Made by a program: the position numbers and the translations under genes
Shown here: in pieces, positions 3,045 to 63,590 of the stretch
How the letters are laid out: each line of letters begins with the position of its first letter
How positions within the stretch are numbered: the first letter of the stretch is position 1
Assembly: GCA_041748075.1 (NCBI GenBank)
Contig: JBGTDX010000118.1
Location: 66,730-130,729, forward strand
DNA length: 64,000 bases
Source: Thermoanaerobaculia bacterium
GTDB lineage: Bacteria > Acidobacteriota > Thermoanaerobaculia > Gp7-AA8
Direction: 5' to 3'
The notes under the pieces: model-generated
The model's input: only the letters and a program-made list of their open reading frames with translations
What the model was told of the DNA's origin: nothing
Databases searched by the model: none

Positions 3045-3225
3045 GTCAAAACTCCCGCCGTCATCCCGAGCAACCTAACGGCGCGGGGCGCCGGTGAAGG
3101 GGTGATGAACCGCGCACCGGAGGTGCGCTGAGAGGGTAGCCGGTGGCAAGCGAAGCGCAGCCACCGGACAGTGAGTCCCTCTTGTACACGCACCCCGGGT
3201 AGGGGTGCCAGATCCGACCTTGTTC

Positions 3226-3457: not shown

Positions 3458-3991
3458 ATGAATCGTCTAATCAGGTTTCACCGCCGGGATGCCCGCGGCT
3501 TCTCCCTCCCGGAGTTGCTCGTAGTGATTGCGATCATGGGACTGATCGTCATGGTGTCCGTTCCGAATTTCATCGCCTACTTCCAGTCGAACAAGGTCAA
3601 GACGTCGTTGCGGGTATTCAACACCGACGTCCGGGCTGCGCGGCAGCGAGCGGTAACGCGGAACAGCTTCACCAGAGTCACTTTCAGAACCGGCGTGGGA
3701 GCCAATCAGTATCGAGTGTTCGAGTCGCTCGATCGCGGAGCCACATGGGCAGTTGCGCCTTACATCTCGAGGGAGCTCGAAGAGCCGGTCTACTTCGAGA
3801 GCACCGGCTTCGGCGACACGGCGCCGGCCACTCCCGACACCGCCCCCGACATCGTCTTCCGCAACGATGGCGCCGTCCAGGATCATCCCGGTGGAACAGA
3901 CGATTACGTAGTCATCCGGACGACGCACACCATTCCGAGAAACGAATTCACGATACGAATCAGTGCGGCCGGCGCCGTGAGAACTGATTAG
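3458..3991 (+). CDS. Minor pseudopilin (GspH/FimT-like).
   Basis: Prepilin signal RDARG|FSLPELLVVIAIMGLIVMVSVP. ORF track frame 3380..3991. ATG 3458 gives a 14-aa leader; the in-frame ATG 3380 would give a 40-aa leader. Confidence 0.7.
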   Translation: MNRLIRFHRRDARGFSLPELLVVIAIMGLIVMVSVPNFIAYFQSNKVKTSLRVFNTDVRAARQRAVTRNSFTRVTFRTGVGANQYRVFESLDRGATWAVAPYISRELEEPVYFESTGFGDTAPATPDTAPDIVFRNDGAVQDHPGGTDDYVVIRTTHTIPRNEFTIRISAAGAVRTD

Positions 3992-4005
3992 CCGAGGAGA
4001 TCTGT

Positions 4006-4548
4006 ATGCGCTGCATAGTTGCCAGCTCACGCGGGAGTCACAGCGAACGGGGATTCAATCTCGTCGAAGTCATCATTGCCATGGCTCTGCTGGGAACCGT
4101 CCTTCTGGGAATCCTCTCGCTGTTCTTCTTCGGTCGCAACAACGTCTACAGCGGCAAACAGATGACGCATGCAGTCTCGGTCGCTACACATGTCCTCGAA
4201 GATCTTTCAGGGCTGACGTACACCCAGATCGAAGCGGCGATGGATTTCGAGATCGGAACCGACACACTTGCGAGTCATACGGTAAACGGCGTGACGTATG
4301 CCAGCGCACTGAGAAGAACCACAGACGCTCTCGGTGAAGACGCCGATCCTCCGAACTTCCTCGACAAGTGGAAGGCCGAGCTCGATACAAAAGTGTCCGA
4401 GGGTGCTGTGGACCTGATCTTCACGCCCGATCTCAGCGACCGGGTCCTGCGCATCGACGTGATCGTCACCTGGAAGGAACCGGGAAGGATCAGTGTCGGT
4501 GGGAACAAGCGTCAGATCATCATGGAAACGGCCAAGATCCGCCACTGA
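4006..4548 (+). CDS. Minor pseudopilin (PilV/GspI-like).
   Basis: MRCIVASSRGSHSERG|FNLVEVIIAMALLGTVLLG is a prepilin N-terminal motif. A GAGGAGA Shine-Dalgarno sits 6 nt upstream. Confidence 0.7.
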   Translation: MRCIVASSRGSHSERGFNLVEVIIAMALLGTVLLGILSLFFFGRNNVYSGKQMTHAVSVATHVLEDLSGLTYTQIEAAMDFEIGTDTLASHTVNGVTYASALRRTTDALGEDADPPNFLDKWKAELDTKVSEGAVDLIFTPDLSDRVLRIDVIVTWKEPGRISVGGNKRQIIMETAKIRH

Positions 4549-4564
4549 CCAGGGAGACATTCAG

Positions 4565-7500
4565 ATGCAGCGAACAGCACGTCGTTCCGAGCGGGGATTC
4601 AGCCTCGTCGAAGTCATCGTGGCCACCGCGATTTTCGTGGTCGTCCTCGTCGCAGCGCTGATGCTCTACGACCGGAGCACGAACACGTTCAGGCGAGGGA
4701 TCGAGGCTGCCGACACCCAGCAGAACACCCGAGTGTCGTTCGACAAGCTGCTCACCGATCTCCGCATGGCGGGATTCGATTACGATCGTGATGGGTTCCC
4801 GAGTGCCGCAGCAGGCACCGTCTGGACCGCCAGCCGCGTTTACGCGGTCGGGGACATCGTCGTACCCGTAGTCGTAAACGGCTTCAATTACCGCGCGACC
4901 ATAGGCGGAACCAGTGGCGGTTCGGAGCCGACCTGGCCGACCACCATCGGAGACCTTCGCGTGGATGGCGGGGTTACCTGGGAAACCATTGCCGGCACGA
5001 GCCAGGCGCAGCAGCCCGATGAACAGATCGAATACGTCGGTCCCTCGGCCATCACCATCCGCGCGAACTTCGACTACAACATCACTCCCAACCAGGGACG
5101 CGAACCGGCACTGGAATCCGCATCCTTTCCCGTCGTAACGACCGGAAACCACGAGATCGTCACCTACGCCCTCCGCTCAGCTGACGCCTCCAAGAACATA
5201 CAATCGGTTCAGTTCTTCGCCGACGTAAACGCTTCGGGTGCTCCGAGTCGTACCGCTTATCCCGGCGGAAGTTCCGAGCGGCAGATTACGATTCCAAACG
5301 TCGACCTCACGAACGCCAACCCACCGTATACACTCCACCGTTTCACACTCGCGGAGGACGGTTCGGTGGTCTCGAGCCCTGTAGCCGAAAATATCCGCAG
5401 CCTCAATTTCTTTTACTTTCAGGACACACAGGGGCTGACTCCTCTGGAAGACCTGTCGACCACCCCGGTGGCTTTCCCGCAGGGGAGCGCCACGCTCGGC
5501 GGAAGCGGGCAGTACAATCCTGCAAGCCCGGCGACGCTGATTCCGTGGCGGACGATGCGCTCGCGAGTCCGCTCGGTTCGGGTCGAGCTTGTGGGTATGT
5601 CGAGCCAGCCCGACCCGGCTTATACCGATACAGATCCCATCGTCGCGACGCGCAACTTCAGAAAATATCGCCTCGAAACTCTCATCGTCCCGCGCAACAT
5701 CGGAAAACGTGGCCTGCGCGAGTTCGACACGATGCCTCCAGGCGCGCCCGTACTCCAGTCGGCGTGCTTCGGACACTGCAGCATCGCGAAGCTCACCTGG
5801 CAGGCTCCGTCCACGGGAGGCGCGGTCGAACAGTACGCCATTCTTTACGACACCGACCTGGTCGGAGGTTTCGCGAGCAGTTTCATCGTCAGCGCGACCA
5901 CCTTTGCGTACGTAGTGCTGCCCGACCCCGCTGCCACGTACTACTTCGCCGTCCAGGCGCTCAACGGCTACGGCGCGTCGCCGGAGTCAAACGTACTCAG
6001 CGGCATACCGCTCAACCGGACCAAGCCAGACGCAATCGATGACATCACGGTGAACACCACAGCGAGCGGCATCCAGCTCAGTTGGCAGAAGCCTGTTACC
6101 AATGACGTCGGCGGGCTGACCTGCGTGCCGAGCGGCAGCCCTTCGGAAGAAATCCCAGCCCAGGAGAATATCCGTTACCGAATCTACCGCTCGATAGGAG
6201 ATGACATGTTCACGGCAGATTCGACCACCAGGATCTGGGACGAGAACTCCACCGGCGGCAACCTGGCCTACAACCCCGGAAGCGGAACGGTCACCTTCAC
6301 CGACAGCACGGCCGCCAACTGCGTGGACTACTACTATCGGATCGAAGCCCTCGATCGATGTGGCGACGACAGCAGCCTCAATGCCTCCGGATTCACCGGC
6401 GTGTCGGACATCTTCCCAGCTGCAGGATCTCCGGGAACATTTGCCCGCAACAACCCGAGCACTCCGCCGCAGCCCATGGCGCCTTCAACGCTCCAGGTAC
6501 TTTTGCCAGCGTCTAACTGTGATGCATTCAACTGCGAAATCTATCTCGAGTGGCCACGGGTGACCCTGGACATTTCCTCGAATCCTGTGGCGGTCGACGA
6601 GTACATCATCAGGCGTCGGAGACTGCTGGCGGGCGTTTATGTCGTGGAGCCGCCCGATGATGTTCCCTCGAGCGGCCACTCGGCGACGTCAGGCCCGACC
6701 ATAAGCGTCAGGCAGGATGTTCCCGCACCGGTTGCGGGAGTGTTCGACATGTACGAATACACCGTCTTCGCAACGAACTGCTCCACCTGGAGCGATCCCT
6801 CGCTCACGGTCAGGTTCCCCTGCGCCTGGTCCGGCGGATCGCCGGTGATCACCAACCAGCCGGTAGTCGGGGTATCCGGCGCCCTGGAAGGTAATGGGGA
6901 TGCCGGCTCGCCGTTCCTGGTGTTCGGCTCGCCCTCGTTCAGCATCAGCGGCATAACAAGCACGGTTAACGTGACAGCATTCGTCTATCTGGGGGGAACC
7001 CAGATTGAAGGGCCTCTCACGAGAACCGGCCCCGGCGCGCTGCCGATCTCCACCGATCCCATTGACGATGGGACGATCTACAGCCTGTCCCTGCAGTTCG
7101 TCGATTCCGGCGGTTGCTCGGTCAACCAGACGATCTATTTCGTCGGAAGCAGCAGCAACTGCTGCCTTGCAATTGAAAGCATCACGGGAGCTGTCGCATC
7201 CAGTGCCGAAGTCACAGTCACGTTCAGAAATCAGTGCTCTGCGAACGTGGCGATGAATGCGAGTGGGGCCGTTCGCATGCAGTGGACCGATGACCGATTC
7301 CCCAATCCATCTGTCCGGCTCGGCGGCATCACCTATCCCCGCGAAGGGGGCGGAACCATTGCCGGCACCGTCGCGACGAATACGGAGGGAAGCGTCGTTT
7401 CCCATAGCGCTCCGGGAGGAGCTGACGTGACCATCGAGGCGGGAACAACGTACGAGATCAAATTCTCGTTCACTAGAGACCTGAACGTCTCGACCTCTCC

Positions 7501-9955: not shown

Positions 9956-9968
9956 TGACGCACGAGGT

Positions 9969-10052
9969 GTCATCCTGAGCGAAGCGAAGGATCCCCCCAA
10001 GCCTTGCGATACTGCCAGTTGTAAGGGGATCCTTCGCTTCGCTCAGGATGAC
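9969..10052. repeat. Palindromic repeat element, family R1 copy a (gtcatcctgagcgaagcgaaggatcc ... ggatccttcgcttcgctcaggatgac).
   Basis: About 26-bp perfect arms around a about 32-nt loop. It makes spurious VILSEAKDP-type ORFs on both strands (ORF track 9708..10229 and 9970..10341). Confidence 0.8.
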
Positions 10053-10110
10053 ACTTGCTCCCTTGGCACCGCGCGAGTCTACGATGCGTGGAGCGCGCAC
10101 GATCCTCTCG

Positions 10111-20742: not shown

Positions 20743-21324
20743 ATGCCTGAAACTCGACGTGACGGTTGTGGGTTGTGGGTTGTGGGTTGTGGGACCGCCC
20801 GGACCCCACACAAACCCCAACTCACAACTCACAACTCACAACTCACAACCGGCCGGGCGGCGGCACCCACAACCCACAACCCACAACCCACAACCGGTCG
20901 GGCGGCCGGCTTCACCCTCATCGAGCTTCTCGTGGTCGTCACCATCGTCGGACTGCTCGCGGGCATCGCCGTCGTCAACGTCCTCGGGGCGCAGCGGAAG
21001 GCGGCGGAGAACGTGCTGAAAGCGGATCTCGCCCTGATGCGTCAGGGCATCGACAACTTCTACGCCGACAAACAGCGGTATCCCTCATCGCTCGAAGAGC
21101 TCGTCGAGGCGAAGTACATGCGCAGGATCCCCGTCGATCCGATCACGAAATCGGCCGACACATGGATCCCTGTCACCGAGGAAGTCGAGTTCGATGGAGG
21201 CGGCTTCGGGGGCAGTTTCGGCAGTGATTTCGATTATGACGCGCCCACGGGCCCCGGCATCGCCGACGTGAAGAGCGGCGCCGAGGGAGAAACCCTCGAT
21301 GGCGTGCCGTACGGGGAACTGTAA
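20743..21324 (+). CDS. GspG-like pseudopilin (pilin 2) with an unusually long, repeat-encoded leader. Start uncertain (ATG 20731 or 20743, or TTG/GTG 20770/20779).
   Basis: ORF track frame 20611..21324. Mature start ...TTGRAAG|FTLIELLVVVTIVGLLAGIAV at nt about 20908. There is no start codon between the repeat hairpin and the cleavage site, so the leader (about 40-56 aa) reads ...TTHNSQLTT...PTTHNPQPTT through the heptamer arrays. Confidence 0.55.
   Translation: MPETRRDGCGLWVVGCGTARTPHKPQLTTHNSQLTTGRAAAPTTHNPQPTTGRAAGFTLIELLVVVTIVGLLAGIAVVNVLGAQRKAAENVLKADLALMRQGIDNFYADKQRYPSSLEELVEAKYMRRIPVDPITKSADTWIPVTEEVEFDGGGFGGSFGSDFDYDAPTGPGIADVKSGAEGETLDGVPYGEL
20765..20894. repeat. Inverted arrays of heptanucleotide tandem repeats: (GTTGTGG)x4 ... 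(AACTCAC)x4 ... (CCCACAA)x4, forming an imperfect about 40-bp stem hairpin.
   Basis: Arrays seen at 20765-20792, 20819-20846 and 20866-20893. The flanking gaccgcccggacc / ggccgggcggc are also complementary. The whole structure is in-frame inside the leader of pilin 2. Confidence 0.9.
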
Positions 21325-21332
21325 GGTTTAGA

Positions 21333-21477
21333 GAACGGAATGTTGAATGTTGAATGTTGAATGTTGAATGAGCCCGCTTTCAAAGATTCTCGCGTGTGAC
21401 GAATGTTATGGATGCCCGCAGAAAAAACCTGCGCGGACCCATTCAACATTCAACATTCAACATTCAACATTCCGTTC
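21333..21477. repeat. Perfect 38-bp inverted repeat built from (ATGTTGA)x4+ATG and (TCAACAT)x4, separated by a 69-nt loop.
   Basis: gaacggaATGTTGAATGTTGAATGTTGAATGTTGAATG (21333-21370) is exactly complementary to CATTCAACATTCAACATTCAACATTCAACATtccgttc (21440-21477). The only usable start codon of pilin 3 (21368) is the last ATG of the left arm. Confidence 0.95.
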
Positions 21478-22099
21478 TAAAAATGTAAGAAATCAACAAG
21501 GCTTTACCTTAGCCTCCCTCCTCGTCATCCTGACCGTGATGTCGGTCATCCTCGCCTTCTCCGTCCCGCGCATGTGGTCCGACGTCATGCGAAGGGAGCG
21601 GGAGCAGCAGGCGGTCTGGGCGATGAAGCAGTACGCGCGCGCGATCACCGAGTATCAGAAAAAGCGCCGCGAGCTGCCGACGAAACTCGAGCAGCTCGAA
21701 GAGCAGACCGAGCCGCGAGTCATCCGCTCGCTCTATCCCAATCCATTCAGCGGAGAGCTCGACTGGGTTCCCGTGCCGCCGAGCACCGCCGTCCAGGTGC
21801 CCGGCCAGCCCGGCGCCCCTGGTGCGGGTCTTCCGACGCCGACGCCCGGATTGTTCCCTTCACCGTCGCCATCCCAGCCCGGGCTCAACCCGGGTACCGG
21901 ACTTCAGGGCGAATACTCCGGACCGATCGGCGGGGTCCGCCTCCCGCTGACGGGGCCGAGCATGATCGTTCTCAATGGTCAGGACCGGTACGAGAACTGG
22001 GTCTACACGATCACGGAGCTGGCGCAGGAGCAGAGTGGCGGTCCCGTCCAGGATCCGACGCGGGCGGCTCCGATTACACCGGGAAAGCCTAACCCATAA
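21368..22099 (+). CDS. GspG-like pseudopilin (pilin 3) with a Pro/Gly-rich C-terminal region. Its start codon lies inside the hairpin arm.
   Basis: MSPLSKILACDECYGCPQKKPARTHSTFNIQHSTFRSKNVRNQQG|FTLASLLVILTVMSVILAFSVP. The 45-aa leader is translated through the hairpin loop and right arm. Confidence 0.55.
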   Translation: MSPLSKILACDECYGCPQKKPARTHSTFNIQHSTFRSKNVRNQQGFTLASLLVILTVMSVILAFSVPRMWSDVMRREREQQAVWAMKQYARAITEYQKKRRELPTKLEQLEEQTEPRVIRSLYPNPFSGELDWVPVPPSTAVQVPGQPGAPGAGLPTPTPGLFPSPSPSQPGLNPGTGLQGEYSGPIGGVRLPLTGPSMIVLNGQDRYENWVYTITELAQEQSGGPVQDPTRAAPITPGKPNP

Positions 22100-22108
22100 A
22101 GCCCTCGT

Positions 22109-22192
22109 GTCATCCTGAGCGCAGCGAAGGATCCCCTGAGGACTTGCGGTAGCGCCTCGAGGCGGGGGATCCTTCGCTTCGCTCAGGTTGAC
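22109..22192. repeat. Family R1 palindromic element copy b (gtcatcctgagcgcagcgaaggatcccc ... ggggatccttcgcttcgctcaggttgac). Probable terminator after the pilin cluster.
   Basis: Seen directly, with about 27-bp arms. Confidence 0.8.
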
Positions 22193-22304
22193 ATCTTTGT
22201 CAGTTTGAGCTCCGAGTCCTAAAAACCGCTCCGGGACTCTCTCAAATGCACTAGTTCTGGAATGAATGGGTCGGCCAGAATTTCGCTCCTTCGAACTCCG
22301 TTGG

Positions 22305-39956: not shown

Positions 39957-40026
39957 AGAATTCAGAATTCAGAATGAAGAAAGAAGACTGGCCCTGGTCC
40001 TTTCTGCATTCTGAATTCTAAATTCT
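39957..40026. terminator. Long imperfect AT-rich palindrome (gaattcagaattcagaatg...cattctgaattctaaattc); probable terminator downstream of aroK.
   Basis: About 70-nt near-palindrome seen directly. Confidence 0.5.
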
Positions 40027-53456: not shown

Positions 53457-53538
53457 GGGGGTGAGGGACGTCCCTCGACGCCGTCGCCGTCGCCGTGGCC
53501 GTGGCCGAGACCATGGCGCCGGAGGGCGCAGAAAGACG

Positions 53539-53555
53539 CTAGTGTCCTGTAACGG
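53539..53555. repeat. Half-copy (ctagtgtcctgtaacgg) of the 54-bp palindrome arm found at 61845.
   Basis: 17/17 identity to the palindrome arm, followed by ggcgacggaaacggaaacgg. Confidence 0.6.
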
Positions 53556-53606
53556 CGACGGAAACGGAAACGGTAATCAGGGTGCGCAGGAGCTGGAGGC
53601 GGGCGC

Positions 53607-55778
53607 TTATGCCGTTGCGTGGCGGATGTTGTACTTCCGCTCGACCTGGAGCACTCCATCGATCGCGCTGATGGACTTGATCACCTTTTCGAGGTGTTTG
53701 AGGTCGGCGATTTCGACGTTCAGCTCGATGGTGCCTCGCCCGTCAGCCGTCCGGGACTCGAGGTTCCGGATGTTTGTCTTGAGGTTGGCGATGGAGGATA
53801 CGACACGGGCCAGAATCCCCTGGCGGTCTTCCATGACGATCTCGAGATCGATGTTGAATCGCGAGCCCCGCTCATCGGCCCAGGAAACCTCGATCTCACG
53901 ATCCGGATTGAAAATCAGGTTCTTCACATTCGGACAGCTCGCGCTGTGCACCGCGATCCCTTTTCCGCGGGTGACGTAGCCGACGATCTCTTCTCCGGGC
54001 ACAGGGTTGCAGCAGCCGGCCAGGTACGTCATCAGGTCGTCGTAGCCCTTGACTTTGATGGTCTGGGCTCCGGTGAAGGGAAAGATTCTGCGCACGGCCT
54101 GCTGGAACACGCCGGCGGGCTCCGGTTCCTTTTTCCCTTTGCCTCCCTCGGGGACAAACCTCTCCACGACGGCCTTCGCGGCGATCTTTCCGTATCCGAC
54201 GTCGGCAAAGAGCTCCTCGAGCCTGGCCAGCCCGTATTCGGCGAGCACGCCATCGAGAGCGTTCTCGGCGATGAGCTTCTTGAACTGAACGCGGAGGCGT
54301 TTCGCTTCTTTTTCGATCAGCTTCCGTCCCAGCTCAGTCGATCGGTTCTTCTGCTCGGTGTTGAGCCAGTGACGGATCTTGTGGCGAGCCCTCGAGGTGA
54401 CGACCAGATTGATCCAGTCGCGATTGGGCGTTTGATTCGGCGTCGTGAGTATCTCGACGATGTCACCGTTCTTCAGAGTCGTCCGGAGGGGCATGAGCTT
54501 CCCGTTGATCCGAGCTCCGACACACCGATGTCCCACGTCCGTGTGGATCCCGTAAGCGAAATCCAGCGGGGTGGCTCCACGCGGAAACGCGAACACGTCG
54601 CCCTTCGGCGTGAAGGTGTAGACCTCGTCGGGGTAGAGGTCGATCTTCAGCGAATTCATGAACACCCGTGGGTCCTTGATGTCGTGCTGCCATTCGACCA
54701 CCTGTCGCAACCAGAGGAAGTTCTCGTCATCGGTTGACGGTCCCCCACCTTCTTTATATTTCCAGTGGGCGGCGATCCCCTGTTCGGCAACCAGATCCAT
54801 CTCCCGGGTCCGGATCTGCACCTCGAAGGGCTGGCCCTTCTCAGCCACGACGGTGGTGTGGAGGGACTGGTAGAAGTTCGGCTTCGGCATCGCAACGTAA
54901 TCTTTGATGCGGCCGGGCACGGGTCTCCAGGTCTGGTGGATGATGCCGAGCGCCGCGTAACAATCCTTGACTGTCGCGGTCGTGATGCGGAAGGCGAGAT
55001 AGTCGTAGAGCTGGCCGATGTCGATTCCCTGTTTACGCAGTTTCTGGTGGATCGAGTACATCGATTTTACGCGGCCGCCGACTTCGCATTCGATGAGGTT
55101 CTCGCTCATCTTCGCGCTGAGGGTCTCCCGGATTCTGTCGACGATCTCACCCGACACCGCCAACTTTCCTTCGACCGCGCGCGAGAGCTCTTCGTACTCC
55201 CGCTGGTGGAGATTTCGGAACGAGAGGTCCTCGAGCTCATTCTTGATCCGCCCCATGCCGAGGCGGTTCGCGATAGGCGCATAGATCTCGAGTGTTTCCT
55301 TGGCAATGGTCAGACGGCGATCGTCCGGCATGTGCTCGAGGGTTCGCATGTTGTGCAGCCGGTCCGCGAGCTTGACGAGAACGACGCGGAGGTCCGAGAC
55401 CATCGCGAGAATCATCTTGCGGAACGTTTCGGCCTGTTGCTGTTCTTTCGAGACGTAGGCGTAGCGTGAGATCTTCGTCACGCCGTCAACGAGCTCGGCA
55501 ACATCGTCGCCGAAGAGCTCCTGCAGTTTCTCCTTGGTCGTGAGGGTGTCCTCGAGAACGTCGTGCAGGAGCCCGACTGCGATCGAGGTTTCGTCGAGCC
55601 TCATGTCCGCCAGGATGTAGGCGACATTGAGTGGATGAACCAGGTACGGCTCGCCCGAGCGGCGGACCTGTCCCTTGTGCTCGAGGGCCGAGAAGATGTA
55701 GGCCTTCTGGAGCAGTTCCTCATCGAATCCCGGTTTGTAGGACTCGACCTTGTCGAGGATCTGTTCGAAACGGATCAT
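53607..55778 (-). CDS. Bifunctional (p)ppGpp synthetase/hydrolase (RelA/SpoT, Rel).
   Basis: HD domain (HPLNVAYILADMRLD...HDVLEDT), synthetase domain, TGS and ACT regions. 723 aa. Confidence 0.9.
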   Translation of the reverse strand: MIRFEQILDKVESYKPGFDEELLQKAYIFSALEHKGQVRRSGEPYLVHPLNVAYILADMRLDETSIAVGLLHDVLEDTLTTKEKLQELFGDDVAELVDGVTKISRYAYVSKEQQQAETFRKMILAMVSDLRVVLVKLADRLHNMRTLEHMPDDRRLTIAKETLEIYAPIANRLGMGRIKNELEDLSFRNLHQREYEELSRAVEGKLAVSGEIVDRIRETLSAKMSENLIECEVGGRVKSMYSIHQKLRKQGIDIGQLYDYLAFRITTATVKDCYAALGIIHQTWRPVPGRIKDYVAMPKPNFYQSLHTTVVAEKGQPFEVQIRTREMDLVAEQGIAAHWKYKEGGGPSTDDENFLWLRQVVEWQHDIKDPRVFMNSLKIDLYPDEVYTFTPKGDVFAFPRGATPLDFAYGIHTDVGHRCVGARINGKLMPLRTTLKNGDIVEILTTPNQTPNRDWINLVVTSRARHKIRHWLNTEQKNRSTELGRKLIEKEAKRLRVQFKKLIAENALDGVLAEYGLARLEELFADVGYGKIAAKAVVERFVPEGGKGKKEPEPAGVFQQAVRRIFPFTGAQTIKVKGYDDLMTYLAGCCNPVPGEEIVGYVTRGKGIAVHSASCPNVKNLIFNPDREIEVSWADERGSRFNIDLEIVMEDRQGILARVVSSIANLKTNIRNLESRTADGRGTIELNVEIADLKHLEKVIKSISAIDGVLQVERKYNIRHATA

Positions 55779-55865: not shown

Positions 55866-56636
55866 TTACGCGCTCGGAACGATCCAGCTGCGGCCATCCG
55901 CCGACTCGATGGCCTCGCCGCGAAAGCCGAAGTACTCGAGCATCACTTCGGGCCGCATCACGTCTCCGGGTGTTCCCTCCATCGCGAGCCTCCCCCTGCT
56001 CATGACCAGCATCCGGTCGGAACACGCCGCGCTCCAGTTCATATCGTGCGAGATGAAAACAACGGTGCATCCTTTCGAGTCGACGATCGATCGGAGCAGT
56101 TGCGAGAAGCGCTGCACGTGCTCGAGGTCGAGCGCTGCGAGCGGTTCATCGAGCAGAATCAGGCGCGGTTGGCCCGCGAGCACGCGGGCGAGAAACACCC
56201 GTTTCCTCTCGCCCCCGCTCATCTCCTCCAGGAGCCTGCCGGCGAGATGCGTGGCGTCGCAGTCGGCGAGTGCCTGCTCGGCGAGCTCGTAGTCTTCCCT
56301 CGATTCCCATTGGAACCGGCCGAGAAATGGTGCGCGCCCGGAAAGGACCACATCGATCGCCCGCATCGGCAGCAGCCACTCCGGTTCCTGAGGGAGATAC
56401 CCGGTCTGTCGGGCGAACTCGCGGCGATCCCACTCCCCGATCGGCTGGTCCAGAAAGCGGACTTCCCCCTGCTGCGGCGAGAGCACGCGCGCCATCAGTT
56501 TCATCAGCGTCGACTTGCCTGAACCGTTCGGCCCGGTCAGCGAGATCAGCTCTCCTTCGCCGAAACGGGTCGTCACCGAGTCGAGGCCGCCTACGCCCCT
56601 CGCATACGAAAATCCGACAGCTCGGAGGTCCATCAT
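55866..56636 (-). CDS. ABC transporter ATP-binding protein (FecE/BtuD-type importer).
   Basis: Walker A GPNGSGKST, signature LSGGERKRV, Walker B LILLDEP. Confidence 0.85.
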   Translation of the reverse strand: MMDLRAVGFSYARGVGGLDSVTTRFGEGELISLTGPNGSGKSTLMKLMARVLSPQQGEVRFLDQPIGEWDRREFARQTGYLPQEPEWLLPMRAIDVVLSGRAPFLGRFQWESREDYELAEQALADCDATHLAGRLLEEMSGGERKRVFLARVLAGQPRLILLDEPLAALDLEHVQRFSQLLRSIVDSKGCTVVFISHDMNWSAACSDRMLVMSRGRLAMEGTPGDVMRPEVMLEYFGFRGEAIESADGRSWIVPSA

Positions 56637-57634
56637 CGAGAGAGTCTCCGCAGCAGCACGAAAAAGAAGGGTACGCCGAGTAGCGCCGTGAGTGCCCCGA
56701 TGGGGAGCTCACCCGGCGCCATGATCGAGCGCGAGAGCGCATCGGCGAGCACGAGCAGCGTGCCACCACCCAGCGCCGCCAGCGGGAGCAGCACCCGGTA
56801 ATCGTGCTTCCAGATCATGCGGATCGCATGCGGCACGAGCAGCCCGACGAAACCGATGATGCCGCTCACGGATACCGCGGCTCCCGTCGCCAGGGACGAC
56901 ACGAGAAACACCATCAGGATCACAGGGGTCGTGTTGACTCCGCGCGATCGCGCATCGTCCTCGCCGAACGCCATGAGTCGCAACTCGCCGCTGAGGGCAA
57001 CCAGGGCGACCAGGCTGAATGCGAGCACCGCGGACAACATCGCCACATCACTCCACGAGGCGCTGAAGAACGTCCCCATCATCCACCGCAACGCCGCCGA
57101 CAGATCACTTCCCGCCGTCAGCGAGAGGGCCAGCAGTATCAGCGCCGAAAAAAATGCATTCAACACGAGACCCGCCAGCAACAGCCTCGATGGATCGAGC
57201 GTCAACTCTCTTCGGGCAAGCATCAGTACTGCGACCATCGCAACGCAGGCGCCGCCGAATGCCACCACCGGGATCACGCCAGGATACCGGGCGAGTCCCA
57301 GCGCCGTGGCCACGGCGGCGCCGCACGCCGCGCCTCCGGATACTCCGAGAATGAACGGGTCTGCCAGCGGATTCCGCAGTAGCGTCTGAAATGTCAAACC
57401 CGTCACCGCCAATATGGCTCCCACCAGCGCCGCGAGAAGCACGCGGGGCAGACGGATCGTGAGAAAGATCGTCTCCGCAATCGGATCTCTCGCGATGAGC
57501 GCGGCGAGAGATACCCGGGCCGCACCCAATTGCGTGGCGAGCGCAATGGCAAGGACCAGCGCCAATCCCAGGATCAGCACACCGTTCCAAAGCGCGCGCC
57601 TGGCGCCCGTATCGCTCAACGCATACGTTCCCAT
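56633..57634 (-). CDS. FecCD-family ABC importer permease (iron-siderophore / cobalamin type).
   Basis: About 10 TM helices. FecCD-type GVSGGAACGAA and IGFVGLLVPH blocks. Confidence 0.85.
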   Translation of the reverse strand: MGTYALSDTGARRALWNGVLILGLALVLAIALATQLGAARVSLAALIARDPIAETIFLTIRLPRVLLAALVGAILAVTGLTFQTLLRNPLADPFILGVSGGAACGAAVATALGLARYPGVIPVVAFGGACVAMVAVLMLARRELTLDPSRLLLAGLVLNAFFSALILLALSLTAGSDLSAALRWMMGTFFSASWSDVAMLSAVLAFSLVALVALSGELRLMAFGEDDARSRGVNTTPVILMVFLVSSLATGAAVSVSGIIGFVGLLVPHAIRMIWKHDYRVLLPLAALGGGTLLVLADALSRSIMAPGELPIGALTALLGVPFFFVLLRRLSR

Positions 57635-58473
57635 TCGTCGACGATCCTGTTGATAGCCGCAGCCGCTTCCGGCAGCCGGGGGCCCGGTCGCATGAACAGA
57701 TCCTCGTCCACTGAATGCGCCGTGACGGGTCTCCCCTCGCGGCGGGCGTTCAGCAGCGTCACGAGAGCGTCGGGAGGCGCAGCCCTGCCCGGATAAAAAA
57801 TCATATCCGGGGGATTCGCAACGACGGCCTCCCTCGAATAAAGCGAGCGCTGGTTGCCCGCGGCGGCCACATTCACAACCCCCGTGAGCGCGAGCAGATC
57901 CCCGAGATGCGTTTCAGGCACAGCGACGTACAGCGGATCGGGGAAGATGACGAAAAGGACGCGCGGTTTGCTGCCGCGCGTGCGTCGCTCCGCCTCCATT
58001 CTGCGCTCGAACTCCACACGAACATCGTTTGCACGCGGCGATCCGAGGATCTCGCCGATTCGCGAGATTGCGGGCGCGACCTCGTGCAGGCGGTCGGTAC
58101 GGACCGCATAGAGAGCGATGTCCATGGACTCGAGAGCCACAGCGAGCTGTGGATGCATCGCGCTGGTCGACGCGAGCACCAGGTCCGGATCGAGTTGCGC
58201 GATCCGCTCCCTGCTCGGCTCCATGCCTCCTACTTTCGGCAGTGCGGCAGCCTGGGGCGGAAAGTCCGAATAGTCATCGGTGCCGGCGAGCAGAGCCCCC
58301 GACCCGATCGCGTGCACGATCTCGGTTAGCGCGGGCGCAAGTGTAATCACCCGCGAGACCTGCTGAGGAAGAGCGACGCGCCGGCCCAGGTCGTCGACCG
58401 TCTCGCCGCTCCGGCGCTCGGTGCAGGAGGCGAGGAGCACCAGAAAAGGCGCGGCGATGCGTAGGAGTCGCAC
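57616..58473 (-). CDS. ABC importer periplasmic substrate-binding lipoprotein (BtuF/FhuD-like).
   Basis: GTG start. Lipobox LVLLASCT. RVITLAPALTEIV...DPDLVLAST pattern of class III substrate-binding proteins. Confidence 0.75.
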   Translation of the reverse strand: MRLLRIAAPFLVLLASCTERRSGETVDDLGRRVALPQQVSRVITLAPALTEIVHAIGSGALLAGTDDYSDFPPQAAALPKVGGMEPSRERIAQLDPDLVLASTSAMHPQLAVALESMDIALYAVRTDRLHEVAPAISRIGEILGSPRANDVRVEFERRMEAERRTRGSKPRVLFVIFPDPLYVAVPETHLGDLLALTGVVNVAAAGNQRSLYSREAVVANPPDMIFYPGRAAPPDALVTLLNARREGRPVTAHSVDEDLFMRPGPRLPEAAAAINRIVDEWERMR

Positions 58474-58481
58474 GATTGTTC

Positions 58482-58725
58482 CTAGTGTCCCGAGCTACCT
58501 AACCGGCGCTGGGCGCCGGTGAAGGGGTGATGAACCACCGTGTCATGCTGAGCGAGGTCACGTCATCCTGAGCGAAGCGAAGGATGACACATCGGTAGGT
58601 TTCCGCGACAGGGTTCCTTACAAGCGGCTGAATGACAATCCCGTCATTGCGGGCGAGCGATGAACCAGGCGTCATCCTGAGAGACTGTGAATTAATTGGA
58701 CAGAAGTGTCATCCCGATCCTCTGG
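58482..58725. repeat. Cluster of degenerate R1-family palindromic units (gtcatgctgagcgaggtcacgtcatcctgagcgaagcgaaggatgac ...; gtcatcctgagag...gtgtcatcccg) plus a conserved about 50-nt element shared with 3062-3112.
   Basis: Seen directly. Lies in the 5' region of the ABC substrate-binding gene. Confidence 0.6.
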
Positions 58726-58755: not shown

Positions 58756-58986
58756 TCAGCCCTGTTCACCAGTTTCGTCGTCGAGATCGTTCGGAATGCC
58801 GAGACGGTTGCACGCAGCCTCGTACATCTGCCTGGAGGCATTGATCGCATTCTGCAGATCGGCAATTCTGTCTTTCACCTTCGAGAGCTCTTCCTCTATC
58901 TGGACCTGAAGATCACCAATCTCCTGTTTGGTCACCTGGAGCGTCGTCTCGTAGAACTTTCGTTGCTGGTCGGTCAGCACCGCCAT
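58756..58986 (-). CDS. Hypothetical small coiled-coil protein (76 aa).
   Basis: ORF only; heptad-like LQVTKQEIGDLQVQIEEELSKVKDRIADLQNAI. Confidence 0.3.
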   Translation of the reverse strand: MAVLTDQQRKFYETTLQVTKQEIGDLQVQIEEELSKVKDRIADLQNAINASRQMYEAACNRLGIPNDLDDETGEQG

Positions 58987-59035: not shown

Positions 59036-61762
59036 TTATAGCTTGAACGGCACGGTGACGTTCTTATAGGCTTTCACGCGAACTCCGTTCACGGTGGCAG
59101 GCTTGAACGTGGATCGCCGGACGGCGTCGAGCGCCGCCTCGTTGATACCGACGTTCTGTGCAACACCACGGAGAACCCGCACATCGAGAACTTTGCCATC
59201 TTCGGAGACGAGCGCAGAGACGATCACGACACCCTCGACCTTGTGCATTTTGGCCATCGGCGGGTATGGCGGTCTGTACTGCTTGATGACAGCTGCCTGT
59301 ACCAGGCCGGGCGTGCTCGCATCGACCAGGTCTCCCTGCCGGACCGGAACGGGGGCGGCAACCGGCGTCGCCTGCGCGACCGCGGGAGTCTGCACCGGCG
59401 TCGGCACCGGAGTCGAGACCGGCACCACTGGAGGAGGCGCAGGCGTCGCTTCGATGACCGGGGTTGCAACAGGAACCGCGGTCTGAGTGAGCTCAGGCGC
59501 CTGCACGGCCGAGGCGGCCGTCGGAACTGCCGCCGGCTGTTTCTGCGGACGACTGGCGGCCAACTGCAGTGCACGCTGATTCTCGAGGCGCAGCCCCTCG
59601 GCTTCGAGTCTTCGCTGGACTTCCTGATCGACGCGTGCCTGATCGCTTCCGTCGATGACAGTCGGGTCGACTGTTTCGCTCACGGGGAGTGCTTCACCCC
59701 CTGAAACGAGCGGCGCCTGATTCGCGGGAACCGGCACCGTCCGCTGCACCGGCGCCGCAGTCGAGGCCATCAGCGCCGGGGTCTGGTCATTGCTCCGTCC
59801 ATTCCAGACGATGTACGAAGCCGTGGCCGCGGTGGTAATCAGCAGAAGAATTCCAGCGGCTATCGGGACGATTCCGAACCTTCTTTTCTTTGCGGGCTCC
59901 GAAGCGGTGAACATCACCGGTGTCGCTATTGCCGGCTGGGGCTGGGGCTCGGGCTCGGGTTCAGCAGTGATTGCGGGCTCGGCCACAAGCTCGGACGGCA
60001 TTTCAATGTCCGCGGTTTCCTGAATCGATTCGACCGGGGTCAGGCCCGCATCACCGGCTTCAGACAATGGATCCGGCTCGTCTGCAACAGCAGGGTCGGC
60101 CACGCTCACCGAATCGGGGGTGTAGAGATGATGCATGTAGATCGCGACATCGGCGTTCGTCGGCGTCGGCCAGAAGTTGTAGACGATCGCATCGAGATCC
60201 TTCACGAGCTCGCCGGCGGTCTGGTACCGGGAAGACGGCTCTCCCTGGAGCGCCTTCATGACGATCGCATCGATTTCGGGGGTGACATCTTCATTGAGCG
60301 TCGAAGGGGCCACGACGCGAGCCTGACGCACCTGCTCGAGGACCGACAGCTCGTTCTCGCCGACGAAGAGCTTGCGGCCCGTGAGAAGCTCGAACAACAC
60401 CGTGCCGAGAGCAAAGATGTCGGATCGCCGATCGATCCGGCGTCCCCACGCCTGTTCGGGCGACATGTACTGCAGCTTGCCTTTGAGCGCACCGGAAAGC
60501 GTGTGAGAGGCCTTCGACGCCGCCTTCGCAATACCGAAGTCGCAGAGTTTGATGTCCCCTTCGTAGGAGATCAGGACATTCTGAGGGGAGACGTCGCGAT
60601 GGACCAGCTCCATCTCCTTCTCATCGAAGTCGCGTTTGCGATGCGCATAGTCGAGTGCTGCCGCCGTTTTCGAAGCGATGAAGAGCGCCAGTTCCACCGG
60701 AAGTCTCTGGTCGCGCTCCTCGGCGGTATTCATGATCGACTTCAGGTCATGACCGTCGATGTACTCCATCGCAATGTAGTAAGACTTGGCGATCCGGCCC
60801 AGATCGTAAATGTGAATGATGTTGCTGTGATTGAGCTGTGCCGCGAGCTTGGCTTCGTCCACGAACATCTCGACGAAGTCGGAGTTGTCGGACAGGTGCG
60901 GAAGAATCTTCTTGATAGCGACGATCTTCTGGAAGCCCTCGACTCCGCGCATCCGCGCCTTCCAGACTTCGGCCATACCGCCACTCGCGATCTTTTCGAG
61001 GAGCACGTACTGGCCGAAGCGGATTCCGTCGGAGGTGTCATCATCGTGGCGTTCCTCAGCGGAACCATCTTCGGGCAACGCAGCTGTATGAAAAGCGGAT
61101 GCATCCTCTGCGCGCCGCTTCTCCAGCCCAGAGAGTGTGTCCTCGAGCAGCTTGTCGAGGTCGACCAGCTGCGAGCCGGGCTTCGTCTCGACCGGTTCGT
61201 CCGTGGCCGGTTTGCGCGTGAGAGGAATCCGGACGCCCGCAAGGGTGTCTGCAACCATCTTGTCCACGTCCTCGAACGTGCTTCGAGATTTTTTCTTTGC
61301 GGCGCTCACAGCCTGCTGCCCGGCAGCGACCTTCAACTGGCGATCGAGCTCTTCTCCGATGTCGGCCGAAGTCCATCCGCTGCCGCCGCGGTCGAGACCG
61401 AGCATCTCCTGTACTTTTCCGAAGAATTCAGTTTCCGAATAAGGCTTGGGCAGCAGATCCGACGCTCCCAGCCGCACGGCGTCCGCCTTGGGCGTCTTGC
61501 CGTTGTAGCCGGAGATGGTGACGAGGATCGGCGTCGCGGCGGCCGCGGGTCGGTTTCGGATCTGGCGAATGAGATCGCCTGTGCTTATTCTCGGAAGGAT
61601 GGACGACAGAACGATGAGGCGGGGAGATGCCGTGTCGAGAGCCTTGAGTGCTTCCTCGCCATCGCGGGCGAAGATGGGGGTGACGGGGTGGGACGAAACA
61701 GCCTGTCTGATCCGGTCGATGTAACGCGGTTCATACTCTACGACCAGAATCTGTTCAGCCAT
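59036..61762 (-). CDS. Multidomain fusion: N-terminal receiver (REC) domain, Hanks-type Ser/Thr protein kinase, TM helix, Pro/Ala-rich linker, and TonB C-terminal domain.
   Basis: Kinase: GQYVLLEKIASGGMAEVWKA (Gly loop), VAIKK, HRDVSPQNVLI, DFGIAKA, SPEQAWG. TM FGIVPIAAGILLLITTAATASYIVW. Linker PAPPPVVPVSTPVPTPVQTPAV. TonB_C-like ...QYRPPYPPMAKMHKVEGVVIVSALVSEDGKVLDVRVLRG...AALDAVRRSTFKPATVNG. REC details are in the fusion-protein finding. Confidence 0.8.
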   Translation of the reverse strand: MAEQILVVEYEPRYIDRIRQAVSSHPVTPIFARDGEEALKALDTASPRLIVLSSILPRISTGDLIRQIRNRPAAAATPILVTISGYNGKTPKADAVRLGASDLLPKPYSETEFFGKVQEMLGLDRGGSGWTSADIGEELDRQLKVAAGQQAVSAAKKKSRSTFEDVDKMVADTLAGVRIPLTRKPATDEPVETKPGSQLVDLDKLLEDTLSGLEKRRAEDASAFHTAALPEDGSAEERHDDDTSDGIRFGQYVLLEKIASGGMAEVWKARMRGVEGFQKIVAIKKILPHLSDNSDFVEMFVDEAKLAAQLNHSNIIHIYDLGRIAKSYYIAMEYIDGHDLKSIMNTAEERDQRLPVELALFIASKTAAALDYAHRKRDFDEKEMELVHRDVSPQNVLISYEGDIKLCDFGIAKAASKASHTLSGALKGKLQYMSPEQAWGRRIDRRSDIFALGTVLFELLTGRKLFVGENELSVLEQVRQARVVAPSTLNEDVTPEIDAIVMKALQGEPSSRYQTAGELVKDLDAIVYNFWPTPTNADVAIYMHHLYTPDSVSVADPAVADEPDPLSEAGDAGLTPVESIQETADIEMPSELVAEPAITAEPEPEPQPQPAIATPVMFTASEPAKKRRFGIVPIAAGILLLITTAATASYIVWNGRSNDQTPALMASTAAPVQRTVPVPANQAPLVSGGEALPVSETVDPTVIDGSDQARVDQEVQRRLEAEGLRLENQRALQLAASRPQKQPAAVPTAASAVQAPELTQTAVPVATPVIEATPAPPPVVPVSTPVPTPVQTPAVAQATPVAAPVPVRQGDLVDASTPGLVQAAVIKQYRPPYPPMAKMHKVEGVVIVSALVSEDGKVLDVRVLRGVAQNVGINEAALDAVRRSTFKPATVNGVRVKAYKNVTVPFKL

Positions 61763-61844
61763 TGCTCTCGCCTCCCCTCCTCTCCTTGGATCTACTGATG
61801 ATTGTCACATAAAACAGCAGTCAGGGGCCAGTGGTGTTCGAGGG

Positions 61845-61898
61845 CTAGTGTCCTGTAACGGTGAAATCGCTAGCGATTTCACCGTTACAGGACACTAG
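61845..61898. repeat. Perfect 54-bp palindrome CTAGTGTCCTGTAACGGTGAAATCGCT|AGCGATTTCACCGTTACAGGACACTAG, between the divergent kinase-fusion and rho genes.
   Basis: 27+27 nt exact inverted repeat read directly. The 9-mer CTAGTGTCC recurs at 53539 and 58482. Confidence 0.95.
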
Positions 61899-61959: not shown

Positions 61960-62225
61960 AAGCCTCTCGTGCCTGGCCCTGACTCCTCCCTGCTCGTCTC
62001 TGGTTCACACCCCTTGCGTTTTCGCTCTATCTACGGTCTACTGTCGTCCGTCGACTTTGCCCTTGCGTTCCGTCCCGCGAGTTCCGCTAGACTGAGGTGG
62101 CACTTTCGTGCGACGAGTTTGTTAAGGCTTCCTTGCCAGGCGTCGAGACAGCAGGCTCCGCCGCGATGTCGTCAGGAACTCCCGCAGTCAGGAGAAATCG
62201 AGCATAACGATGAATTTTACATTGC
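61960..62225 (+). promoter_or_regulatory. Long C-rich, G-poor 5' leader of rho (candidate rut-like autoregulatory leader).
   Basis: ctcctccctgctcgtctctggttcacaccccttgcgttttcgctctatctacggtctactgtcgtccgtcgactttgcccttgcgttccgtcccgc is strongly C>G. Rho genes commonly have attenuating leaders. Confidence 0.35.
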
Positions 62226-63590
62226 ATGACACCACCAGAAAATCGACCACCGCGTAGGCGTCGCAGGCGCAGGCGTCGCGCCCCGGGTAATTCCGCCGGC
62301 GCGCCGGGTTCCGGCAACGCCGCCACGACAGCCTCTCCTCAGGAAGACCAGGCTTCCCGGCCTCAACCGGAAGGTCGTGCGCGAGGGAACGCTCCCAGGA
62401 AAAAACGTTCGCGGAGTCGCGGGGGCCGTTCCCGCGAGAGCGAATCGATGCAGGACAGCTCCAGTCAGCCCGACAGCGGTCCGACCGGGGAGCTCGTTCC
62501 GGCCAGCGGCGTTCTTCACATCAAACCCAACGGAAACGGCGTGCTCGTCAACGCGGGGAACAATTACGTCATTCAGCCGGGCGACCCGCTGGTGCCGAGG
62601 GGTACAATCGAGAAACTGCACCTTCAGCCGGGCCTGCAGCTCACGGGCACGGCAAGACGGACGCACAACGGTCTCGAACTGATCGGGCTGGAACAGATCG
62701 AAGGGATGGCGGTCGACGACTTCCGCGAATCGCGCCATCCGTTCTCCGAGCTGATCTCGATCGATCCGAACGAGATGTTCAAGCTCGAGACCGAACCGGA
62801 TCGCCTGACCACACGGGTGCTCGATCTGTTTGCGCCGCTCGGCAAAGGGCAGCGCTGCCTCATCGTCGCACCGCCAAAGACGGGAAAGACGACCCTGCTG
62901 AAGGACATCGCGCACGGGATCAACGTCAATCACCCTGACGTGATCCTCATGGTGCTCCTCGTGGACGAGAGACCGGAAGAGGTCACCGACTTCCGGCGCT
63001 CGGTAGCTCAGGGCGAAGTGATCGCGTCGAGCTCCGACGAGACCGCAGAGAACCACATCATGATCGCTGAGGTCGTACTCGAGCGGGCGCGACGGCTGGT
63101 CGAGATGAAGAAGGATGTCGTCATTCTCTGTGACTCGATCACCCGAATGTCCCGGGCGTACAATAATGAGCAGCGCGGGAGCGGGAAGATCCTCTCCGGC
63201 GGCATCGACGCCCGAACCATGGAAAAGCCACGGCGATTCTTCGGCGCGGCCCGGAACGCCGAAGACTGGGGCTCCCTGACGATCGTTGCCACCGCGCTGG
63301 TCGACACGGGATCCCGAATGGACGAGGTCATCTTCCAGGAGTTCAAGGGAACGGGAAACACCGAGATCGTACTGGACCGCGGGCTGTTCGAAAGGCGTAT
63401 ATTTCCGGCGATGAACATCGCGCAGACCGGCACCCGGAAAGAGGAGAAGCTGCTCGATCCGGAAGTGTTACCGAAAGTTCACACACTGAGGCGGGCGCTG
63501 GCGGGAACGGATGCCACGACAGCGATGAAAATGCTGCTCGAGAAGCTCCAGAAGTTCAAGTCGAATGAAGCGTTTCTGAAGAGCTTCTGA
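62226..63590 (+). CDS. rho: Transcription termination factor Rho with an Arg-rich low-complexity N-terminal extension.
   Basis: CSD-like VLHIKPNGNGVLV...YVIQPGDPLV; Q/R loops; Walker A APPKTGKTTLL. N-terminal PRRRRRRRRRAPG... Alternative start at ATG 62448. Confidence 0.9.
   Translation: MTPPENRPPRRRRRRRRRAPGNSAGAPGSGNAATTASPQEDQASRPQPEGRARGNAPRKKRSRSRGGRSRESESMQDSSSQPDSGPTGELVPASGVLHIKPNGNGVLVNAGNNYVIQPGDPLVPRGTIEKLHLQPGLQLTGTARRTHNGLELIGLEQIEGMAVDDFRESRHPFSELISIDPNEMFKLETEPDRLTTRVLDLFAPLGKGQRCLIVAPPKTGKTTLLKDIAHGINVNHPDVILMVLLVDERPEEVTDFRRSVAQGEVIASSSDETAENHIMIAEVVLERARRLVEMKKDVVILCDSITRMSRAYNNEQRGSGKILSGGIDARTMEKPRRFFGAARNAEDWGSLTIVATALVDTGSRMDEVIFQEFKGTGNTEIVLDRGLFERRIFPAMNIAQTGTRKEEKLLDPEVLPKVHTLRRALAGTDATTAMKMLLEKLQKFKSNEAFLKSF

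Follow-up and report, generated by a model that had tools for sequence, protein, structure and literature searches.

The window, that is the whole 64,000-nucleotide stretch of DNA that was analysed, contains a perfect palindrome among genes whose identity (relA, an ABC transporter, a kinase fusion and rho) matches their description in the first-pass annotation:

53607-55778, minus strand, relA/spoT
55866-56636, minus strand, ABC ATPase
56633-57634, minus strand, FecCD permease
57616-58473, minus strand, periplasmic binding protein
about 58756-58986, minus strand, conserved 76-aa ORF
59036-61762, minus strand, receiver-Ser/Thr kinase-TonB_C fusion
62226-63590, plus strand, rho

The kinase fusion has a 97% identical homologue on L039, a 9.6-kb contig of the Thermoanaerobaculia MAG GCA_035512555.1, whose DNA is 98.1-99.0% identical to the window over 9.6 kb with the same gene order from rho to relA; further relatives are L040 and L041, in which the kinase is 75-77% identical, and L042, in which it is 55% identical. 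All relatives examined have the 76-aa ORF, for which there is no Pfam hit, in the same place between the binding-protein gene and the kinase fusion (L039 4162-4392, L040 3377-3607 and L042 4347-4577).

The palindrome is located within the 463-bp spacer between the kinase and rho, upstream of both genes, at a distance of 83 nt from the kinase ATG and 328 nt from the rho ATG. It had been described as lying between divergent promoters, of which the position in the spacer is borne out and the promoter part is only plausible. Alignment of five spacers identified two conserved blocks, one of ~190 nt beside rho, which includes a -10-like hexamer TATACT (TAGACT in the window, at 62088-62093), and one of ~60 nt beside the kinase ATG, which includes TGTGACAAT, an extended -10-like motif with a GACAAT hexamer at window positions 61801-61806 (minus strand). 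The palindrome falls between these blocks in the non-conserved middle of the spacer, and the same spacer in L040 and L041 holds other, unrelated hairpin repeats. The palindrome is therefore probably untranscribed and probably neutral. The rho-side block (window ~62040-62225) is of separate interest, as it is kept even where the kinase is only 55% identical, which suggests a possible structured rho leader or autoregulatory region; the TAGACT of the window contrasts here with TATACT in all four relatives (L039-L042).

The two arms of the palindrome, 61845-61871 (CTAGTGTCCTGTAACGGTGAAATCGCT) and 61872-61898, are exact reverse complements, 27 of 27 positions, with a spacer of 0 nt. The features of the palindrome, and of the two partial copies of it found elsewhere in the window, are as follows:

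61845-61898, no strand, perfect 54-bp palindrome, C-TA + 48-bp core + TA-G, with 27/27 complementary arms and a stable fold; these positions are also those of the whole TIR-only element including its CTAG flanks
61846-61847, no strand, putative left copy of a TA target-site duplication, from the L039 empty site and 50-bp indel
61848-61871, plus strand, left TIR, 24 bp, GTGTCCTGTAACGGTGAAATCGCT, with a tip match to IS630-family elements and MITEs
61872-61895, minus strand, right TIR, 24 bp, exact reverse complement of the left TIR
61896-61897, no strand, putative right copy of the TA target-site duplication, from the L039 empty site
53539-53555, plus strand, solo 17-nt TIR tip CTAGTGTCCTGTAACGG, an exact match, at the convergent 3' ends of rpmB (L28) and relA
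58482-58490, plus strand, 9-nt TIR tip remnant CTAGTGTCC, 9 nt upstream of the GTG start of the binding-protein gene

By our arithmetic, ~64000 x 4^-27 = 4e-12 perfect palindromes with 27-nt arms are expected per window. As single-stranded DNA the 54-nt palindrome folds with -31.3 kcal/mol (z = -11.4 against shuffles). The 17-mer CTAGTGTCCTGTAACGG has three exact matches in the 64-kb window where 0.04 are expected, and three or more were seen in 0 of 100 shuffles. For the 9-mer CTAGTGTCC there are four window matches against 0.13 expected, although the one additional match is not significant on its own and takes its weight from the orthologous site in the sister genome. The palindrome and its copies at 53539 and 58482 are all exact in the window, as had been reported, and together they are far beyond chance. 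A 48-bp core made of 24-bp perfect TIRs, with TA flanks, leaves no room for an ORF.

The identity of the 17-mer was examined by an exact scan of one genome per species (185,579 genomes, 596 Gb), which returned 36 loci, mostly in Acidobacteriota (Vicinamibacterales, Thermoanaerobaculia and others) and Gemmatimonadota, the remainder being in some Proteobacteria and one Kiritimatiellota. By our arithmetic ~70 loci are expected for a random 17-mer in 596 Gb; the raw count, which shows no enrichment, was therefore dropped and only the content of the hits was used as evidence, as several of the 36 may be chance matches. In the Acidobacteriota MAG CAWFVE01, five loci are identical inward of the 17-mer and unrelated outward of it. 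The element in L024 runs from 3922 to 5116 (1195 bp), has CTAGTGTCCTGTAAC at both ends in inverted orientation and codes for a 374-aa ORF that scores 274 bits against NCBIfam NF033545 'IS630 family transposase' (cut-off 100) and also carries Pfam DDE_3 and HTH domains. Using tblastn, this protein was found complete and 100% identical at four CAWFVE01 loci and partial in L010, where it is cut by the locus edge, so that the 1195-bp element is present in the MAG at least four times in full and once cut short. Proteins 40-74% identical to the 374-aa transposase adjoin the 17-mer in seven further loci (tblastn). Because it bounds multi-copy 1195-bp elements that code for an IS630 transposase, the 17-mer can be assigned as the TIR tip of a widespread IS630-family insertion sequence.

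TIRs in the IS630 family are the sites of transposase binding and cleavage, and IS630 and ISY100 form the bacterial branch of Tc1/mariner. The TIR tip of the palindrome shares 15-17 identical nt with the ends of 1.1-1.2-kb elements coding for NF033545 proteins; specifically, the initial 14 nt of the left TIR plus the preceding CTA make up the 17-mer tip of IS630-family elements and MITEs elsewhere. Further inward, arm positions 18-27 (TGAAATCGCT) resemble an (A/T)TTCG / TCG(A/C)TAG stretch found in 12 of 31 distinct related ends, an example at the same position being GGAATTCGATAG in Thermoanaerobaculia L021. In full-length elements the two ends agree over only ~15 nt. The window element differs from IS630 in being 48 bp long and in having no transposase gene, and no IS630 transposase was detected by tblastn within the 64-kb window. 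Among plasmid hits the best are unnamed 'IS630 family transposase' entries with ~64% identity to the L024 protein, and in the IS630 of Bradyrhizobium pBb1S5a, the only plasmid element whose ends were read, the TIRs differ after CTAGTGT; the TIR subgroup thus appears to match no named IS identified among the plasmid-borne transposase matches examined. A 21-mer, TGTCCTGTAACGGTGAAATCG, gave 0 matches in viral contigs in the parent search.

It was also observed that the IS630 transposase frame crosses the right TIR (...T V T G H) and stops at the TAG of the flanking CTAG (L024 3992-5116; also L005, L028, L032, L003 and L014). Given that the frame ends in the flanking CTAG, the stop codon consists of the duplicated TA and the next target base, and a TA followed by A or G at the target would be needed for termination of the transposase.

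Comparison of the window with L039 identified an empty site. L039 reads GCGACTAACCC where the window reads GCGA[54 bp]CCC, and the wider spacers are ...CCCCGCGACTAACCCTCGAAC... in L039 and ...CCCCGCGA[CTAG...54 bp...CTAG]CCCTCGAAC... in the window. The indel is exactly 50 bp, equal to the 48-bp core (GTGTCC...GGACAC) plus one TA, a difference that would be the signature of an IS630/Tc1-mariner insertion into TA. The palindrome is flanked by TA inside CTAG, which is said to have been described by Tenzen et al. in 1990 as the classic target of IS630. The TA is taken as the duplicated target because of the biochemistry of IS630/Tc1-mariner elements: ISY100, whose IRs are 24 bp long, as are the arms of the palindrome core, duplicates TA and transposes by cut-and-paste (PMC2170065). 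One flanking base differs, in that the right-hand TA is followed by G in the window but by A in L039 (GCGAC-TA-ACCC); one substitution is needed under any parsing, and the substitution rate between the two genomes is about 1-2% per site. Given the CTAG at both ends of the palindrome, it might be asked whether this is an IS5-type MITE that duplicated a 4-bp CTAG target, since 'CTAG or YTAA' is the target of the IS5-derived MITEPsy1, which duplicates 4 nt on insertion (PMC3189936), and L039 has CTAA at the empty site. Sequence alone cannot separate a 2-bp from a 4-bp duplication at 61845-61898. However, every full-length element examined with these tips codes for an IS630-family transposase and not for an IS5 one, and a 4-nt duplication needs two substitutions relative to the empty site where TA needs one, so that an IS5 origin is hardly credible.

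No TIR-like sequence is present in L040, L041 or L042. The alignment of these three is poor at the exact insertion point and does not polarise insertion against excision or the G/A change; insertion in the lineage of the window, after its split from L039, would be the parsimonious reading. The empty site also bears on an earlier suggestion that the palindrome is an operator for a dimeric regulator, possibly metal-responsive; such a host regulator might act on the divergent kinase and rho promoters and on the ABC transporter. Perfect dyad symmetry between divergent genes and a related 9-mer just upstream of the binding-protein gene are both what such an operator would offer. Nevertheless, this is highly improbable for two reasons: first, the motif is absent from the closest relative, L039, which is 98-99% identical and has identical gene order, and it is missing from the syntenic site in L040-L042 as well. 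Second, in other phyla the sequence is found beside IS630 transposase genes or MITEs and not beside orthologous host genes; a search for the motif elsewhere places the 17-mer at transposon ends and not upstream of a recurring host gene. A length of 54 bp is, furthermore, far above that of a typical operator. In such cases a single empty-site comparison settles whether an operator or a transposon is at hand.

An RNA hairpin had been put forward as well. If functional it might be an sRNA, a processing site or a terminator, and a very stable stem would indeed form. The palindrome also has a sub-threshold Rfam match, of 36.6 bits against a gathering score of 70, which reflects shape only. No Rfam family reaches threshold, however, and the sub-threshold hits are to eukaryotic miRNA hairpins; neither arm is followed by a T-run that could provide a U-tract, and the terminator scan does not call the palindrome. 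Given in addition that the hairpin is not conserved in L039 and lies upstream of both conserved promoter-proximal blocks, a role as RNA is very unlikely.

The two partial copies were then considered for their relationship to the palindrome. At the position of 58482, both genomes have GGAACAATCGTG ahead of the binding-protein gene start, and in L039 CTAGTGCCCTGTAACGGTGG lies directly against it. This orthologous site matches the full 17-mer at 16 of 17 positions, and since it does so, the 9-mer of the window is regarded as a true TIR relative, the orthologous, truncated tip of an older TIR. The interior of this older element has been replaced in the window by other repeats (58491-58622), so that the two genomes have different interiors behind the same TIR tip. 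The copy at 53539 consists of the 17-nt tip and nothing more, and it lies between rpmB (L28) and relA, whose 3' ends converge there. No partner TIR lies within 300 nt downstream of it, a scan of the window for tips with up to 3 mismatches found no partner, and 106 of 500 shuffles did as well as the best local match to its own arm. Inside relA there is a match to the palindrome arm that 4 of 500 shuffles equalled; allowing for multiple testing, it was treated as chance. Beyond nt 17, comparison with left and right IS ends gave scores equalled by 64 to 814 of 1000 shuffles, and an assignment of the copy as a left (transposase-upstream) end through GAAAC repeats was withdrawn, the alignment being no better than shuffles. 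The contigs of the sister MAG break at this point, L039 ending 6 codons before the relA stop and L043 starting inside rpmB, and it is possible that a repeat lies within the gap. It is proposed that the 53539 and 58482 copies are the decayed tips of other, independent insertions into CTAG sites.

This proposal concerns a rare target. CTAG occurs 11 times in the window, against 226 expected from base composition (a depletion of ~20-fold) or 43 from a Markov estimate, and 5 of the 11 belong to IS630-type TIR sequences. With CTAG so depleted, the few remaining sites would be hit repeatedly, and scarcity together with local hopping may suffice to account for three TIR relics in a stretch of 8.4 kb. 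The same clustering, in which all three TIR-derived sequences fall within 8.4 kb while the other 55 kb has none, raises the possibility that the ~8.3-kb relA-ABC-kinase segment, which had been suggested to be delimited by these copies, is mobilised as a composite or foldback transposon with the copies as its ends. The comparison of gene order speaks against this: the genes are housekeeping genes, and L042, with 55% kinase identity and no TIR-like sequence, keeps the gene order across and beyond the segment (rho / kinase / 76-aa ORF / binding protein / permease / ATPase / relA / L28 / pilM-N-O-P / secretin), as does L039 without the palindrome, such that the segment is neither absent nor relocated in these relatives. 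In addition, the 53539 and 61845 sequences are not the outward-facing ends of one unit, the palindrome being itself two-ended. A mobile 8.3-kb segment is accordingly extremely unlikely, and CTAG scarcity with local hopping would better explain the clustering.

Several other repeats were noticed in the same genomes. Intergenic hairpins with arms of short tandem repeats (GGTTGTG x4, GAATGTT x4-5, AGAATTC, GCCGTS hexamers) and loops of 16-76 nt form a family that we do not recognise:

window 20763-20896, tandem-arm hairpin
window 21327-21483, tandem-arm hairpin
window 39957-40026, tandem-arm hairpin
window 53478-53575, tandem-arm hairpin
L041 about 2680-2790, tandem-arm hairpin
L039 7274-7368, tandem-arm hairpin

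The GAATGTT type is shared by the window and L041, but in L041 it lies elsewhere, in the rho-kinase spacer. In L039 a 95-nt hexamer-armed hairpin lies between the ABC ATPase gene and relA and is absent from the window (55852/55853); its presence in one of two 99% identical genomes indicates that tandem-arm hairpins are gained and lost quickly. A second family, of ~90-nt hairpins with arms GTGTCATCCTGAGCGAAGCGAAGGATCCCC and its reverse complement, occurs at window positions 9965-10054 and 22107-22196, as a half copy at 58562-58585 beside the 58482 TIR remnant and as a full copy in the rho-kinase spacer of L040. A ~50-nt repeat, TCCCGAGCWACCTAAC(C)GGCGCKGGGCGCCGGTGAAGGGGTGATGAACC, is present at 3055-3111 and 58488-58536; the copy at 58488 directly adjoins the 9-nt TIR tip, where it seems to have taken the place of the older element's interior. 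The start of this repeat resembles the left end of the Bradyrhizobium IS630 (CTAATGTCCCGAGTCAC), so that the repeat may represent one end of a further IS630-type MITE family.

A search for an inverted tip inward of each 17-mer (up to 3 mismatches in 14 nt) identified a series of elements that share these ends and differ in length:

1195-1197 bp, three distinct elements: L003, L014 and the CAWFVE01 element, complete in L024, L028 and L032
1104 bp, L011
315 bp, L012
278 bp, L021, Thermoanaerobaculia
177 bp, L036, Vicinamibacterales
165 bp, L004, Vicinamibacterales
70 bp, L009 = L038
54 bp, the window palindrome
51 bp, L037
38 bp, L030

Candidates of 503 bp (L016) and 131 bp (L006) were given no weight, as their partner tips have 2-3 mismatches and their ends are not CTAG. 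The derivatives of 38-315 bp in other genomes are all non-coding, and those of 165-315 bp are MITEs with near-perfect TIRs of 33-45 nt and clean, CTAG-bounded tips. In L037, an independent 51-bp element consists of two abutted TIRs alone, with 5 transition mismatches between its arms, and it establishes that TIR-only elements occur in nature and need not be perfect palindromes. Apart from the window, only L037 (51 bp) and L038 (70 bp) matched a search for paired 14-nt tips with a 16-46-nt gap across 241 million metagenome records. A second copy of the 54-bp element was found neither in these 241 million records nor in the 185,579 species-representative genomes, where paired 17-mers occur at 0 loci. 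In a related observation, L019 carries at 614-646 a solo 33-nt TIR with CTAG on both sides (CTAGTGTCCTGTAACGGAAGTCTTGATCGCTAG) between convergent genes, its outer TAG being the stop codon of one flanking gene; the TIR of this subgroup often appears to have its own internal CTAG, like the centre of the window palindrome.

The window palindrome shares with MITEs a size within, though at the lower limit of, the 50-800 bp range of prokaryotic examples (PMC11602168), and it is non-coding, has TIRs longer than the usual minimum of 10-15 bp, has a probable target-site duplication and is absent from the 98-99% identical L039. It departs from them in copy number, as the window holds one complete copy and two unrelated tip remnants. 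Since the multi-copy property is lacking as far as it can be tested, the safest name is a TIR-only IS630-family relic.

The perfection of the palindrome invites a technical explanation, in which a longer MITE is truly present and its interior was collapsed by the assembler or by a foldback chimeric read. The source appears to be a MAG contig, and arms that are identical at 27/27 positions with no spacer stand out against the 1-5 arm mismatches of its real relatives. However, the structure lies well inside a long contig, the TIR tips and the 50-bp indel relative to L039 both coincide exactly with where it ends, and the imperfect 51-bp TIR-only element of L037 exists independently. De Bruijn graphs with odd k, moreover, have no palindromic k-mers with which to create such a junction. 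An artefact of this kind is thus improbable and, if real, it would leave a MITE insertion as the explanation, with the class of element unchanged.

Known systems offer several parallels. The RUP of Streptococcus pneumoniae, 107 bp long and thought to be mobilised by IS630-Spn1, is likewise non-coding and intergenic, with TIRs that match an IS630-family element and insertion at TA, but has internal sequence and about 108 copies (PMC2229807), whereas the palindrome has no interior and one known copy. Laboratory mini-ISY100 transposons with 30 bp from each end are as efficient as the full element, the 24-bp IRs are suggested by the authors to be the minimum cis requirement, and the TIRs alone thus supply what is needed in cis, with insertion again duplicating TA (PMC2170065). 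Those constructs differ in having a long marker-gene spacer; in the palindrome the ends abut, which makes synapsis within one molecule doubtful. Stowaway MITEs of plants, which derive from Tc1/mariner, are also TIR-bearing deletion derivatives with a TA duplication and hairpin potential, and two of the sub-threshold Rfam hits of the palindrome are to plant-style MIR miRNA hairpin families, but Stowaway elements are eukaryotic, 70-500 bp long and of high copy number. Finally, the IR-IR junctions of IS30, IS911 and IS256 circles and dimers also bring two IS ends together. In these the tips abut, a few bp apart, and are highly reactive, whereas in the palindrome it is the inner ends that abut, as in a MITE; an IR-IR circle junction was rejected because the tips face outward. 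We know of no circle junctions for IS630/Tc1 elements.

Taken together, it is very probable that the palindrome is two IS630-type TIRs back to back, a non-autonomous IS630 relic inserted recently in a non-conserved spacer. The earlier suggestion of a foldback-type mobile element remnant was essentially right, given that the arms are IS630-family TIRs and that the site is empty in a 98-99% identical genome. Under this reading an IS630 (Tc1/mariner superfamily) element would have been reduced to its two 24-bp TIRs, with inner ends joined and tips outward, seated in the TA of a CTA(G/A) site in the kinase-rho spacer after the split from this relative. Two routes can be envisaged: either the insertion was of a longer MITE with long, near-perfect TIRs, whose interior was lost afterwards, or the 48-bp unit transposed in its minimal form. 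The centre of the palindrome holds TCGCTAGCGA, and the octamer CGCTAGCG in each TIR is its own reverse complement, which makes it a direct repeat when present in both TIRs of a MITE. Slipped-strand deletion or abortive gap repair, annealing at CGCTAGCG, could thereby have removed the interior and left a palindrome with zero spacer. In MITEs, unlike in full-length elements with their ~15 nt of agreement, both ends are long and nearly identical. By our reasoning a DNA of 48 bp cannot bend enough to bring its two ends into one transposase complex, and this stiffness, together with the lack of any other copy, argues against transposition in minimal form. Insertion of a MITE followed by collapse is therefore somewhat favoured as the more likely route; neither an autonomous element nor a longer MITE whose arms read ...GGTGAAATCGCTAGCG was found. 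In all likelihood the relic serves no host function.

It is conceivable, though unlikely, that the 48-bp unit is instead a still-active 'minimal transposon' that is excised and reinserted in vivo, perhaps through cruciform extrusion joining its tips. If so, the 38-, 51- and 54-bp examples in different phyla would be its products and not the outcome of repeated collapse in situ. A weaker variant of this idea is that insertion ~40 nt upstream of the conserved TGTGACAAT -10-like kinase motif altered the expression of the kinase or rho in the lineage of the window.

In summary, the relic of an IS630-type insertion leaves the current understanding of transposition unchanged. It belongs to an IS630 subgroup with the conserved tip CTAGTGTCCTGTAAC that occurs in Acidobacteriota, Gemmatimonadota and others, and whose derivatives can be as short as two abutted 24-bp ends, the theoretical minimum. 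Its value is for annotation: a striking perfect palindrome between regulatory genes is easily mistaken for an operator, and here it is transposon debris.
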